Positions 5,015 to 36,881 of a stretch of 42,587 bases of DNA are shown one piece after another. The first letter of the stretch is position 1; each line of letters begins with the position of its first letter. The stretch lies in contig MFKO01000008.1 of the NCBI GenBank assembly GCA_001779595.1, positions 5,618 to 48,204 of the forward strand, written 5' to 3'. The notes under the pieces were generated by a model, which had not been told where the DNA came from, did not search any database, and saw only the letters and a list, made by a program, of their open reading frames with translations. The position numbers and the translations under genes are program-made. The stretch is from Candidatus Kaiserbacteria bacterium RIFCSPHIGHO2_01_FULL_46_22. GTDB lineage: Bacteria > Patescibacteriota > Minisyncoccia > Phycocordibacterales > UBA918.

Positions 5015-5104
5015 TGGCGGAGAGAGCGAGATTCGAACTCGCGAACCCTGTTAAGGGTCGACAGTTTAGTAAACTGTTGGTTTCAGCCACTCACCCATCT
5101 CTCC
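5015..5104 (-). tRNA. tRNA-Ser(ACT)
   Basis: Cloverleaf GGAGAGA...TCTCTCC-G-CCA with long variable arm and G73; anticodon arm ACAGT-TT-ACT-AA-ACTGT; T loop TTCGAAT. Confidence 0.9.
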
Positions 5105-5141: not shown

Positions 5142-5312
5142 CGGAGGGAGTTTCGCTCTTACAGAGCAGTATAGGTTGTCGATATTTTAGTTCGACTCTT
5201 GTCTCCTAAAATATCAGGCAACCTTTTCGAATCCCTCCGTCTCTCGCAAAAATATAGTCGCAGAACGCTTGCGCGTTATGCTCCTTATTTTGCGGAGACG
5301 GAGGGATTCGAA
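5142..5312. repeat. tRNA 3'-end mirror element
   Basis: 5226-5251 is the reverse complement of 5288-5312 (tRNA T arm, acceptor strand and trailer; 25 bp, 1 bulge); inner hairpin at 5173-5224; short CGGAGGGA copy at 5142-5149. Confidence 0.75.
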
Positions 5313-5379
5313 CCCTCGAGGCCGATTAAAGCCTGGCCCCTTAGCAAGGGGCTACGTTAGACCACTCTGACACGTCTCC
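5293..5379 (-). tRNA. tRNA-Ser(GCT), CCA not encoded
   Basis: GGAGACG acceptor, anticodon arm GCCCC-TT-GCT-AA-GGGGC, long variable arm, GAGGG-TTCGAAT-CCCTC. Confidence 0.95.
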
Positions 5380-9846: not shown

Positions 9847-9920
9847 TCCGCCCTCTTGGACTCGAACCAAGGACCACAGAGGTATAAGCTCTGTGCTCTA
9901 ACCAACTGAGCTAAGGGCGG
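9847..9920 (-). tRNA. tRNA-Ile(TAT), CCA not encoded
   Basis: CCGCCCT/AGGGCGG acceptor, A73, D arm GCTC-AGTTGGTTA-GAGC, anticodon arm CAGAG-CT-TAT-AC-CTCTG, CTTGG-TTCGAGT-CCAAG. Confidence 0.9.
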
Positions 9921-15908: not shown

Positions 15909-16295
15909 GGGGATGACAGGCATCGACGGTTTGCCCGGTTCATCTGCGCAATGCCGAAGTTGAATGGGACTTCGCTAAAACTCATTCATCTGTACGTGCA
16001 AACAAAAGCGTACCAAGCCCGTTTGCATACGGGTTCGCCTTCGCTCGAGCTTAAATTTTAGCTCGCGACTGGCGACGCCGCGTTACCTGACGTTTGATAA
16101 GGTAATGTCGGTGGAATAGCCATCGAACTCTAGATAATTGGTTTGTTCCTCCAATTATCCAAAATGTTAGGAACTGCTCGTCTGAAGGTTTTGCCTACTT
16201 TTCCACTTCAGACGCTAAGATCTAAACTAGGCTATGCATTGTAGACTCAGCTGGATCGACATTCTCGGACGGCGGTTCAATTCCGCCCATCTCCA
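15909..16295 (+). ncRNA. ssrA: tmRNA; predicted tag (A)ANKSVPSPFAYGFAFARA
   Basis: 5' GGGGATG pairs with 3' CATCTCC-A including G3-U; GGCATCGAC D-loop analogue; GGACGGCGGTTCAATTCCGCC T arm; tag frame GCA(15998)...TAA(16054); close to smpB. Confidence 0.93.
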
Positions 16296-16555
16296 CGAGT
16301 ACAAAAATCCGCTCACACATTTGTGTGGGCGATTTTTGTTCGTGGAGATGGAGAAAGCAAACTGCTTTGCTTTCGTGCGGAGTTGAACAGGCGGAGCTAT
16401 GTTTTTCTTCCCTTCCTAGAAGAAAAACGAGCGAGCCGGGCCGGCAAGTACTTATGAACGCAGTGAATTAGTAACTTGGTATGTCAACTCCGCCCATCTC
16501 CACGAGTACAAAAATCCACACGTTACGTGTGGATTTTTTGTTCGTGGAGATGGAG
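16277..16555 (+). repeat. Duplicated and mirrored tmRNA 3' end
   Basis: 34-nt direct repeat 16277-16310 / 16484-16517 (1 mismatch); each copy is followed by a short hairpin and then an antisense copy (16331-16353, 16532-16555). Confidence 0.85.
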
Positions 16556-33887: not shown

Positions 33888-34523
33888 TTAGGCCTTCAAA
33901 AGCTTGAGCGCTTCGATAGTGGCACGCGCGTTGTTAAGTTTATTCTTGGTTCGGGAAAGAAGTTTGGCTGTAACATCCTTTACTCCAGCCAGCTCTAGTA
34001 CGGTACGAACCGAACTACCAGCCACGAGACCGCGACCAGCTGCTGGGATGATCATAACTTCACTGGAAGAGAGCTTAGTCTGCACATCGTGTGCGATCTG
34101 GCTATGTTGATTCATTGGTACAGTGATCATATGCTTTTTGGCATCTCGCACTGCTTTTTCAATCGCTAGCTGTGTGTCACCAGCCTTGCCGATACCAACT
34201 CCAACCCGACCCTTCTTATCACCTATCACCATTGCAACAGAGAAAGAGAATCGACGACCACCAGCCATAACACGAGTAACGCGGCGGATCGAAATGATTT
34301 TTTGATCAAACTCTGGGCGAACACGTTCGCGACCACCTTCATTACGACGAGGGCGACGCGGATTACGGTCACGACCTCCTCGTTCAGTACGGCCACCACG
34401 ACCACGTGCTGCTCCTCGATCCCCCTGACCGGCATTTCCAGCCTCAGTCACAGGTGCATCGGCGACCGCTCCATTGGCGGTCTCATTTGCCGTCTCGGCA
34501 ATTTTAGCTTCCTGTTTTTCCAT
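33888..34523 (-). CDS. rpsE: 30S ribosomal protein S5
   Basis: IRRVTRVMAGGRRFSF, GRVGVGIGKA, GRGLVAG, VLELAGVKD. Confidence 0.97.
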   Translation of the reverse strand: MEKQEAKIAETANETANGAVADAPVTEAGNAGQGDRGAARGRGGRTERGGRDRNPRRPRRNEGGRERVRPEFDQKIISIRRVTRVMAGGRRFSFSVAMVIGDKKGRVGVGIGKAGDTQLAIEKAVRDAKKHMITVPMNQHSQIAHDVQTKLSSSEVMIIPAAGRGLVAGSSVRTVLELAGVKDVTAKLLSRTKNKLNNARATIEALKLLKA

Positions 34524-35445: not shown

Positions 35446-35832
35446 TTACCAAATCTTAAACAACTGCTCTCCACCGACCTTGCTCTCGCGCGCTTCGCGG
35501 TCGGTTAGGATGCCCTTCGGCGTCGATAGGATCAAATGACCCTTGCCGAATTTGACCGGATAAATTTCTTCGACCTTAGCGTACAGACGACGACCCGGCT
35601 TCGATACTCGAGCCACATCGTTGATAATATGCTTACCTCCTTCGTACTTAAGACCCACAATAAGGGTCTGCTTTACGCCCTTACCTTCTACTTCTACTGA
35701 AGTAACATAGCCAGCATCACGCAGCTTGTTAGCAACCGCCTCTTTTAGGCGAGAATGCGGTAAAGACACTGTTTGGTGTCCGACCGCTCCGGCGTTCTTA
35801 AGCCGGATGATGAAATCTCCTATCGTATCCAT
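35446..35832 (-). CDS. rpsH: 30S ribosomal protein S8
   Basis: DTIGDFIIRLKNA, RVSKPGRRLY, ILSTPKGILT, VGGEQL..IW. Confidence 0.97.
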   Translation of the reverse strand: MDTIGDFIIRLKNAGAVGHQTVSLPHSRLKEAVANKLRDAGYVTSVEVEGKGVKQTLIVGLKYEGGKHIINDVARVSKPGRRLYAKVEEIYPVKFGKGHLILSTPKGILTDREARESKVGGEQLFKIW

Positions 35833-35842
35833 AACTTAAGAA

Positions 35843-36028
35843 TTACCAGCTCGACTTTTTAACACCAGGAATGAAACCTTCGTGTGCATGTTCACGGAAA
35901 CAAATACGGCAGAGATCGAAATCTCGCATAAAGCCGTGTTTACGTCCGCACTGCGCACAACGGCGCACTACTCTACTCTTGTACTTTGGAGTACGCGTCG
36001 CGCGTACTTTAACTGATGTTCGAGCCAT
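35843..36028 (-). CDS. rpsN: 30S ribosomal protein S14 (zinc-binding type Z)
   Basis: RCAQCGR...[19 protein letters not shown]. Confidence 0.97.
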
Positions 36029-36045
36029 TTATTGTAGCTAGAATT

Positions 36046-36138
36046 CGAGGCGGTATCAGCTAGATGCGCTGACCTACCTCGCTAATAAATCTTTATGAGA
36101 ACCACCCGTTGGGGCATCTATCGGTCCTTCACAACGGG
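36046..36138 (-). promoter_or_regulatory. Candidate S8-binding ribosomal leader RNA
   Basis: CGAGG-UA-GGUCAGC-GCAUCUA-GCUGAUACC-G-CCUCG mimics 16S h21; the upstream hairpin CCCGUUG/CAACGGG carries UAGAUGC, complementary to the second loop. Confidence 0.8.
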
Positions 36139-36170
36139 GCTTAGATTACCAGAATTTATCAGAAAGTAAA

Positions 36171-36215
36171 GCCCCCGACTCCTTGATGACTAGACGTCAT
36201 CAAGGAGTCGGGGGC
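36171..36215. terminator. 20-bp perfect hairpin (CCCCGACTC family)
   Basis: GCCCCCGACTCCTTGATGAC-TAGAC-GTCATCAAGGAGTCGGGGGC, followed by TTTACTTT on the - strand. Confidence 0.75.
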
Positions 36216-36239
36216 AGTATAATCATCAGGTCTTCCGAG

Positions 36240-36881
36240 TCATTCGGCTAACATAAATAACCGGCGTTTGTGGGTTGTCTTATCTCCCTGCCATCTGATC
36301 TTATCCCGTTCCCAAGAAAGGATACGCCACTGGTGAACTTCTTTTCTCCAGAAGACGCCCAGAGCGTTCTGGCTGGTGAAAAACAAGTTGGGGTGGCCGG
36401 TATTGAGCAAAATGCCAGACTTACCGTTTCGTTGCCGACTGATCAGTTTGATCAGCAAGGCGCATGCAGCAATTTCATCCAACATACGCAAAGGGCCCAA
36501 GGAACCTTCCATTTCCTCATCAGTAGCGCCCCCTGACCCTTCTGCTTGGTACAACGACATGGAATAGACGGAGCCAGCTTCGCACTTTTTTGTATCAGAC
36601 ACGATCTTCTTGACCTGGTCGTCGATCCATAGACCCTCAGGCTTGCCGAAGCGTGGATTAAAGAATTCTCGCGGCGATTGTGGATCAGATACTACAACGC
36701 GAATCCTGTGCAGAAACGCGAATGTGCTTTGTGTCATTTTGGTGTATTTGTCCAAGACGACGCTTACCTCATCGGCAATTACATCACCCTTTCTCTGAAG
36801 GGTATTCTCCGACAGACCTCGATCGCGCAGATATGAACCAAGAAGGTTTTGTAAAAGCATGTTCGATGCAGTCGTGTCCAT
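36240..36881 (-). CDS. Hypothetical protein (resembles an expanded Parcubacteria family)
   Basis: GAGGAG SD; LISRQRNGKSGILLNTGHPNLFF...VFW...W...W...RRLF resembles proteins I recall from Parcubacteria genomes (recollection, not a search). Confidence 0.7.
   Translation of the reverse strand: MDTTASNMLLQNLLGSYLRDRGLSENTLQRKGDVIADEVSVVLDKYTKMTQSTFAFLHRIRVVVSDPQSPREFFNPRFGKPEGLWIDDQVKKIVSDTKKCEAGSVYSMSLYQAEGSGGATDEEMEGSLGPLRMLDEIAACALLIKLISRQRNGKSGILLNTGHPNLFFTSQNALGVFWRKEVHQWRILSWERDKIRWQGDKTTHKRRLFMLAE

Follow-up and report, generated by a model that had tools for sequence, protein, structure and literature searches.

The ribosomal protein genes rpsN and rpsH of Candidatus Kaiserbacteria bacterium RIFCSPHIGHO2_01_FULL_46_22 are preceded by a small hairpin that closely resembles the S8-binding site in helix 21 of 16S ribosomal RNA (rRNA), and the question raised by this locus is whether the hairpin serves as an operator for S8, the product of rpsH, on the messenger RNA (mRNA). 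The locus lies in a 42,587-nucleotide (nt) stretch of contig MFKO01000008.1 (assembly GCA_001779595.1), which is referred to in its full length as the window and to which all coordinates refer. A first-pass annotation, made from the sequence alone, had proposed an S8 leader at this position, with a kissing-loop architecture. The leader is almost certainly a conserved structured RNA, and the hairpin at 36046-36081 is probably an mRNA operator for S8, binding being taken from the mimicry of the rRNA site and from the gene context.

The S8-site mimic upstream of rpsN

36046..36081, minus strand: S8-site mimic hairpin, 36 nt, CGAGG-UA-GGUCAGC-GCAUCUA-GCUGAUACC-G-CCUCG

The hairpin is composed of an outer stem (P1, CGAGGU/GCCUCG), an inner stem (P2, AGC/GCU) and the loop GCAUCUA (36067-36061), and 17 nt separate it from the rpsN ATG (36028). 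Its strings, coordinates and distance to rpsN had been given correctly in the first-pass annotation, as was evident on re-reading of the minus strand. Numbered as in E. coli 16S rRNA, the 5' strand of the core comprises A595 (36075), G596 (36074), G597 (36073), U598 (36072) and C599 (36071), and the 3' strand comprises G639 (36057), A640 (36056), U641 (36055), A642 (36054), C643 (36053) and C644 (36052), with the pairs G596-C644, G597-C643 and C599-G639.

In E. coli 16S rRNA, positions 594-601 read U594-A-A-G-U-C-A-G601 (UAAGUCAG) and positions 637-645 read C637-U-G-A-U-A-C-U-G645 (CUGAUACUG), which agrees with the site as it had been given in the annotation. The two leader strands, UAGGUCAG and CUGAUACCG, are identical to these at 15 of 17 positions; the two differing residues, G596 and C644, pair with each other, so that the earlier description of the leader as the 16S site bar a compensatory A596-U644 to G-C change holds. 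The hairpin alone folds with z = -3.05, and only 1 of 200 shuffles folds as well. Within the window, the family model has no other strong match (50.6 bits for the hairpin, 12.6 for the next best), the window copy being itself a member of the training set.

Conservation and covariation

The starting set consisted of the rpsN loci of 30 relatives, in 26 of which the motif was present upstream of rpsN. Base pairing was compared with slid controls, in which the 3' pairing partners were shifted along the alignment. In the MAFFT alignment of the 26 leaders, 88.1% of the cells were paired, versus 31.7-42.6% when slid, and in the MAFFT alignment of 41 distinct hairpins the corresponding values were 85.2% and 30.7-50.8%. 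Nine of the 12 pairs were changed on both sides among the 26 leaders, and none of 500 column shuffles scored as high. The 596-644 pair was AU in 12 of these leaders, CG in nine, GC in four and other in one, while the pairs of P2 alternate among CG, GC, UA and AU. Both stems and the 596-644 pair thus covary, as judged by slid controls and shuffles.

Seven core residues (G597, U598, C599, G639, A640, A642 and C643) were invariant in all 41 MAFFT-aligned leaders. The G597-C643 pair was present in 26/26 and 41/41 leaders, and A642, U598 and A640 were likewise invariant in both alignments; in the larger table of 119 leaders described below, the latter three residues belonged to the parsing pattern, so that the table is no test of them. 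In the parts of the published work consulted (PMC4176348), the S8 signature includes the (G597-C643)-641 triple, with U at 641, and an invariant A642 that stacks on S8. The same parts describe an A595-(A596-U644) triple, for which the Thermus equivalent is G595-(C596-G644). The comparison supports the view that the invariant leader residues are those of the published S8 signature, and that the variable ones would change in ways that S8 tolerates.

Distribution among genomes

Two models were trained on the genus, namely a covariance model of the leader (R1) and a model of the hairpin only (R2); outside the genus, their scope is that of the sampled genomes. Of the 128 genomes of the genus, 116 gave a single R1 match each (one genome had two, both at contig ends), by which the proposed conservation in relatives was borne out. 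Among the 12 genomes without an R1 match, five had no rpsN by the query used, one had a contig edge and six carried divergent copies, five of these recovered by R2 without filters (12-32 bits) and one by eye. The 116 R1 matches and the five model-recovered divergent copies make up a set of 121 leaders, of which 119 were parsed.

In other families of the order, 149 genomes were scanned with R1 and gave no match. A pattern scan of the 400 nt upstream of rpsN in 23 regions from such families revealed no compact S8-like hairpin; its only two loose matches had loops of 29 and 35 nt and were located far upstream. Across 150 genomes of the phylum, R2 found nothing beside S14, S8 or L5, and its weak matches (E 0.013-0.48) were confined to eight genomes, one of them being 16S helix 21 itself. 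Judged from this distribution, the element appears to be an innovation of a single large genus.

In a genome of the same class, an S8-like hairpin, GGGGCAAGUCGGC-ACA-GCCGAAACUGCC, was observed away from the S14, S8 and L5 genes (L080:1501-1534, plus strand); its score of 21.4 bits (E = 0.02 per genome among 150 genomes) is at chance level. The rpsN leaders of other families of the order were of a different kind, being short, with a TTGACn-17-TAGTAT-type promoter and a small hairpin that often takes the form AAGCUU-loop-AAGCUU; a U-run comes immediately ahead of the start codon. Such leaders, seen in L014, L026, L030, L114, L121, L123, L125-L128 and L130-L132, have the appearance of a 5' hairpin or of an attenuator.

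Natural variation of the core and the 16S site of the genus

The cores of the 119 parsed leaders (597-599 / 639-643) were distributed as follows.

GUC / GAUAC: 78 of 119 leaders
GUU / AAUAC (C599-G639 replaced by U-A): 15 of 119 leaders
GUC / GAAAC: 13 of 119 leaders
GUC / GAGAC: 10 of 119 leaders
Other cores: 3 of 119 leaders

Position 641 was U in 94 of these leaders, A in 14 and G in 11. Position 644 pairs with either 596 or 595 in 114 of the 119, and the remaining base is mostly A. An unpaired purine beside a Watson-Crick 596-644 pair would fit the base-triple requirement of S8. In 17 leaders the pair is available only in the 595-644 register, with the A adjoining G597, as in the 16S rRNA of the genus itself.

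The window assembly carries no 16S rRNA gene, and 15 other 16S sequences of the genus (L032-L046) were used instead. All 15 read UUAGUC...GAAACGG at the helix-21 site, unlike the E. coli register. They have U595, A596 and G644, such that a U595-G644 wobble is possible and an unpaired A stands beside G597. The genus 16S rRNA and the leaders both retain the GUC/GAnAC core together with one unpaired A beside a pair. By this comparison of sequences, the window leader is closer to the canonical, E. coli-type site than to the rRNA of its own genus.

Position of the hairpin and translation initiation

36029..36045, minus strand: spacer, 17 nt, A-rich, unstructured and lacking a Shine-Dalgarno sequence, where ribosomes presumably land

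The rpsN start codon is located 14-208 nt downstream of the hairpin in 118 of the 119 parsed leaders. Measured from the base of P1, the distance is 14-29 nt in 85 of the 118 and 44-208 nt in the remaining 33. In 12 long spacers, taken from the first 46 leaders, the extra sequence forms a single exterior stem and 16-28 nt are left unpaired. Of these 12 folds, ten reach very high stability (z = -3 to -10). The long spacers resemble the short leaders in that their final 11-22 nt are rich in A.

Over the 118 leaders, the final 14 nt ahead of the start codon contain 58% A and 4% G, and a Shine-Dalgarno-like motif (GGAG, GAGG or AGGA) is present in this segment in none of them. The rpsN start codons are equally divided between ATG (59) and GTG (59). 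In the window as a whole, only 9 of 47 crude open reading frames (ORFs) have a Shine-Dalgarno-like motif, which suggests that initiation here is mostly Shine-Dalgarno-independent.

Two further observations concern spacers and starts. Long spacer inserts occur in L003-L006, L013, L017, L023, L029, L076 and others, and in the window's nearest relatives these inserts carry CCCUAAACCCU repeats; they may be mobile palindromic elements. Several starts in the window, for example 14779 (minus), 17458 (minus), 9070 (plus) and 24233 (plus), are preceded, at 6-9 nt from the ATG, by a -10-like box (TATAAT, TGGTATTAT), an arrangement that suggests leaderless mRNAs.

Organization of the transcription unit

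On the minus strand, the leader is followed by the tightly spaced genes rpsN-rpsH-rplF-rplR-rpsE-rplO-secY. The features that define the unit and its upstream boundary are the following.

36240-36881, minus strand: ORF of 213 amino acids, upstream of the promoter, with an AGGAG Shine-Dalgarno sequence and a strong terminator of its own
36171..36215, minus strand: intrinsic terminator of that ORF, from a terminator scan, a perfect 20-bp stem followed by TTTACTTTCT
36143..36170, minus strand: promoter of the rpsN unit, -35 TTTACT (36170-36165), 16 nt, extended -10 TG-G-TAATCT (36151-36143)
35843..36028, minus strand: rpsN, zinc-type S14, 61 amino acids, head of the unit
35446..35832, minus strand: rpsH, S8, 128 amino acids, second gene, starting 10 nt past rpsN; the presumed repressor
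33888-34523, minus strand: rpsE, S5, 211 amino acids
33429-33888, minus strand: rplO, 9 nt after rpsE

The extended -10 that had been pointed out just upstream of the leader is correct as a string and is conserved throughout the genus. The promoter block is kept in the leader alignment of relatives as TTGCnn-N-TTCTGGTATTGT, with TTGC as the -35, and 41 of 46 leaders contain a promoter-like motif. A simple promoter scan omitted the TTTACT/TAATCT promoter because its -10 matches at only three of six positions. Transcription would start near 36136, giving a 5' untranslated region (UTR) of about 108 nt. The terminator of the preceding ORF folds at -44.5 kcal/mol (z = -11.3), and with this terminator and a conserved promoter upstream, the evidence supports rpsN-rpsH and the following genes as a transcription unit of their own. 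A second promoter-like site, CTGATA-17-TACAAT (36059-36031), was taken as a chance occurrence, since its start would fall inside rpsN.

The first-pass annotation had placed the element at the front of a split operon with rplE not adjacent. The element does head an independently transcribed rpsN-rpsH unit, and rplE is indeed about 128 kb away on the same contig of the window genome (an assembly of 647 kb in 8 contigs, 97.5% complete); the split from rplE, on the other hand, is peculiar to this genome. Many relatives have rplE at a distance of 190-900 nt upstream, with a new promoter in between and, in several, a terminator-like hairpin. The ORF of 213 amino acids fills the place taken by rplE in many relatives.

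Several features of the window are recorded here in their own right. The S5 protein encoded by rpsE is extended at its N-terminus by a low-complexity stretch of about 70 amino acids in which Arg, Gly and Glu abound. No L30 gene separates rpsE from rplO; Patescibacteria are reported to lack L30, and the gene order in the window agrees. Rfam matches in the window include a transfer-messenger RNA gene at 15909-16298 (plus strand, 104 bits) and three transfer RNA genes on the minus strand (5018-5104, 5293-5379 and 9847-9920).

Upstream elements of the leader

36096..36131, minus strand: counterpart of hairpin B, outer stem UGAAGGACC/GGUUCUCA, 5' bulge GAUAGAU, inner hairpin GCCC-CAAC-GGGU, from minimum free energy (MFE) folds
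36082..36091, minus strand: single-stranded linker, GAUUUAUUAG in the window and GGAUUUAUNA in most relatives, from alignments
36114..36120, minus strand: UAGAUGC, exact complement of the loop GCAUCUA (36067..36061); candidate tertiary partner, subfamily-specific

In many relatives the S8 mimic is preceded by hairpin A, a GAA linker and hairpin B. RNAalifold predicted both hairpins from 10 leaders, with compensatory changes in 10 of 16 pairs. Hairpin A is missing in the window's clade. For helix B, 80.5% of the cells were paired in the six closest relatives, versus 43-51% when slid, and 4 of 13 pairs were compensatory. In several species hairpin B has a GGCGAG/CGAGCC base, which permits tandem G-A pairs. 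A clamp of the 5' linker with the spacer and start codon was considered and rejected, the mean longest complement being 4.5 versus 4.29 in shuffled sequences, with 1 of 38 at p <= 0.05; the AAUAAAU/AUUUAUU match of 7 nt is peculiar to the window.

The annotation had further proposed that the loop kisses a preceding hairpin, CCCGUUG/CAACGGG. The exact complement of the 7-nt loop, UAGAUGC, was confirmed at 36120..36114, and 0.7-1.4% of shuffles of the upstream 110 nt reach a complement of this length. The hairpin drawn around it (36138-36132 and 36111-36105) did not hold up. Alone it gives z = -0.21, with 76 of 200 shuffles folding as well, the whole-leader MFE fold does not use it, and in the six closest relatives 47.6% of its cells were paired versus 28.6-50% when slid. 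Since the conserved fold places GAUAGAU in the 5' bulge of helix B, a contact in the window would be of the loop-bulge rather than the loop-loop type.

Across the family, no enrichment was detected: the longest loop complement in the 110 nt upstream averaged 4.33 nt versus 4.22 in shuffled sequences (118 leaders), and 7 of the 118 reached p <= 0.05, where 5.9 were expected. The partner is missing from most of the leaders, and the contact is not a defining feature of their family. Within one loop class the picture is different. Of the 21 leaders with an open CAUCUA loop, 14 carry UAG(A/G)UG upstream, versus 3 of 97 others, these comprising none of 11 closed CAUCU pentaloops and 3 of 86 leaders with other loops. 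The equivalent AGAAU was upstream in none of 37 leaders with AUUCU loops. The complement spans 7 nt in the window, 11 other leaders have one of 6-7 nt, and the partner is positioned either in the helix-B bulge (window's clade) or in the hairpin-A loop (others), two non-homologous sites. Two leaders (L022 and L142) have UAGGUG, an A-to-G change that retains a G-U wobble, and two others have UAGAUGU opposite ACAUCUA, giving seven pairs. A close relative of the window (L069, the same as G128, so placed by its S14 sequence and by the rpsN tree) has no partner.

The rpsN tree (186 nt, FastTree) is weakly resolved and covers 102 of the 119 rows, those outside it lacking either a full-length rpsN or 90 nt upstream. 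The joint loop-partner trait requires four changes on this tree, two of them forced by well-supported branches, and only three well-supported independent pairs are available, too few for an association test. The association reflects only about two to four independent lineages.

Proposed function and alternative explanations

Were S8 to accumulate in excess of free 16S rRNA, it would bind the rpsN-leader hairpin, as the mimicry and gene context suggest. The bound protein would lie 14-29 nt before the start, at the 5' edge of the A-rich tract devoid of a Shine-Dalgarno sequence, which would be the only single-stranded landing site. The S8-bound hairpin would then bar loading of the 30S subunit and leave rpsN untranslated, and steric occlusion of initiation is the step to which the constrained distance between hairpin and start codon points. 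The downstream genes, including rpsH, would fall via translational coupling, for which only the gene spacing speaks. Given S8 binding, such translational occlusion is the mechanism that we favor, with some reservation.

Several observations weigh against an S8 operator of this kind, and some of them also lend themselves to another explanation, namely that the hairpin is a conserved 5' UTR element with a different job (mRNA stabilization, an RNase processing site or a site for S14, L6, L18, S5 or L15) and that its likeness to the S8 site is coincidental. The 16S site of the genus is a variant, differing at 595, 596 and 644, so that the window leader is no copy of its cognate rRNA site. A minority of leaders have G at 641 (GAGAC in 10 and AAGAC in one of 119). 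The hairpin loop (NNUCU) is conserved, with TCT in 87 of 119, which is unexplained by described S8 recognition and implies that something else may also act on the hairpin; the conserved linker GGAUUUAUNA is equally without a need in such recognition, and two further conserved hairpins sit in the leader before the mimic. In the 33 leaders with a distant start, occlusion leans on predicted spacer folds, and shuffled spacers leave a similar number of unpaired nucleotides, so that unpaired length does not discriminate real long spacers and the argument rests on the stability of the inserts and their single-domain shape. A coincidental likeness is nonetheless quite improbable. The residues that are invariant are those of the S8 signature, and the variable ones change as S8 tolerates, as far as the consulted parts of PMC4176348 describe it; moreover, a generic stabilizer would need neither a fixed asymmetric GU / AUA loop nor a fixed distance to the start codon.

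If S8 does bind, it could act on transcription, through attenuation, or on mRNA decay instead of initiation. Precedents exist in the parts of the literature consulted, in that ribosomal protein leaders of Gram-positive bacteria may act by attenuation, as with L20 in Bacillus subtilis (PMC1865079), and E. coli S8 lowers upstream cistrons via mRNA destabilization (PMC10931766). In the present leader a terminator or attenuator reading was rejected, as GAAUUCUAGC, and not a U-run, comes directly after the hairpin and the spacer is A-rich rather than U-rich. The terminator scan found a terminator only upstream of the promoter, and the constrained start-codon distance points to initiation, which together make an effect on transcription or decay very unlikely. 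A contact between the loop and an upstream hairpin as an integral part of a regulatory switch is a more tentative matter. The 7-nt complement in the window, the bias of UAG(A/G)UG toward CAUCUA loops, its two non-homologous sites and the wobble-keeping changes speak for it, against which stand the lack of family-wide enrichment, the AUUCU loops without AGAAU, the close relative without a partner, the non-conserved hairpin and the small number of tree changes and independent pairs. A kissing switch is accordingly doubtful, and even a real loop contact restricted to the CAUCUA subfamily seems possible rather than likely; the architecture originally proposed is supported only in part. Less likely still would be a multi-domain riboregulator, composed of two 5' hairpins, the GGAUUUAUNA linker and the S8 mimic, in which the CAUCUA loop of the subfamily docks on UAG(A/G)UG and the contact sets the affinity for S8 or couples S8 sensing to a second input, such as the binding of hairpins A and B by a further operon-encoded protein. 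Such a riboregulator would have no described forerunner among the ribosomal protein feedback RNAs of Patescibacteria or among S8 operators beyond Gammaproteobacteria, and it would act on mRNAs devoid of a Shine-Dalgarno sequence.

Significance of a probable S8 operator in Patescibacteria

If the S8-operator reading is true, the same protein-RNA recognition would have been recruited a second time, now before another gene and in another topology. It would have arisen in a phylum of ultra-small bacteria with reduced genomes, in a group without cultured members, and would work in a translation system that is largely devoid of Shine-Dalgarno sequences. The 119 natural variants would constitute a ready mutational scan of S8 tolerance, covering U, A or G at 641, C-G or U-A at 599-639 and either register of the unpaired A. 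The small size of the hairpin (36-38 nt) renders binding, structural and reporter work straightforward.

Comparison with known systems

The novelty of the leader was examined in Rfam and in the literature, and no S8 leader outside Gammaproteobacteria was found described in either. No Rfam family relevant to the leader was matched, either in the window at the gathering threshold or in 35800-36300 at E <= 10. The rplE start of E. coli was also without a relevant match in Rfam 15, so that the library seems to have no usable S8 model. R2 is similarly restricted in reach: it left the start region of the E. coli rplE locus unmatched (its best score there being 8.9 bits, elsewhere in the locus), and it does not find helix 21 of the genus itself. 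The literature search, which covered openly accessible main texts, yielded no S8 leader before rpsN and no ribosomal protein leader in Patescibacteria. The 20 ribosomal protein leader candidates of Eckert and Weinberg (2020; PMC7247131) are comparable, as conserved structured elements of the 5' UTR with a narrow range that came to light by comparative analysis, and for which autoregulation was likewise inferred from mimicry; a term search through the main text of that paper gave no rpsN, rpsH or uS8, with 'protein S8' confined to its reference list.

The leader shares with 16S helix 21 the asymmetric internal loop with G597-C643 and position 641, the residues U598, A640 and A642, and an unpaired A by the 596-644 pair. 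It differs in that the distal part of the helix is replaced by three to four further pairs and a loop of 5-8 nt, and in that the context of a three-way junction is absent. In contrast to the 16S rRNA of the genus itself (U595, A596, G644, GAAAC), most leaders carry A595, a Watson-Crick 596-644 pair and GAUAC.

The closest functional parallel is the S8 operator of the E. coli spc operon. S8 feedback on this operon is a textbook case that is not known beyond E. coli and its close relatives, and the structure of the operator was reportedly described by Merianos et al. in 2004. Both elements are mRNA mimics of the 16S helix-21 site within the spc gene cluster, and the presumed logic is the same, in that excess S8 would block initiation and the downstream cistrons would follow by coupling. 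In E. coli the operator, described as the S8-interacting RNA by Fu et al. (2013), spans the rplE start codon and extends for about 80 nt within the coding sequence, and this type is confined to Gammaproteobacteria (PMC3616713, in the parts consulted), whereas the leader is a compact 36-nt hairpin that lies wholly in the 5' UTR, follows its own promoter and precedes rpsN, in another phylum and with a range of one genus. According to the consulted parts of a 2024 review, spc regulation in other species "remains unknown" (PMC10931766). The topology also differs. In the E. coli operator the GAUUAC strand comes first and the AAGUC strand follows about 70 nt further in the 3' direction, the reverse of the order in rRNA, and its triple is numbered A+80-(A+81-U+11) in the sections consulted of PMC4176348, whereas the strands of the leader are in the rRNA order and 13 nt apart. 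By its placement and topology, as read from the sequence, the leader falls outside the E. coli operator family, and an evolutionary origin independent of the E. coli operator would be the simplest reading. It nevertheless probably shares with that operator the mode of recognition and the likely logic of control.

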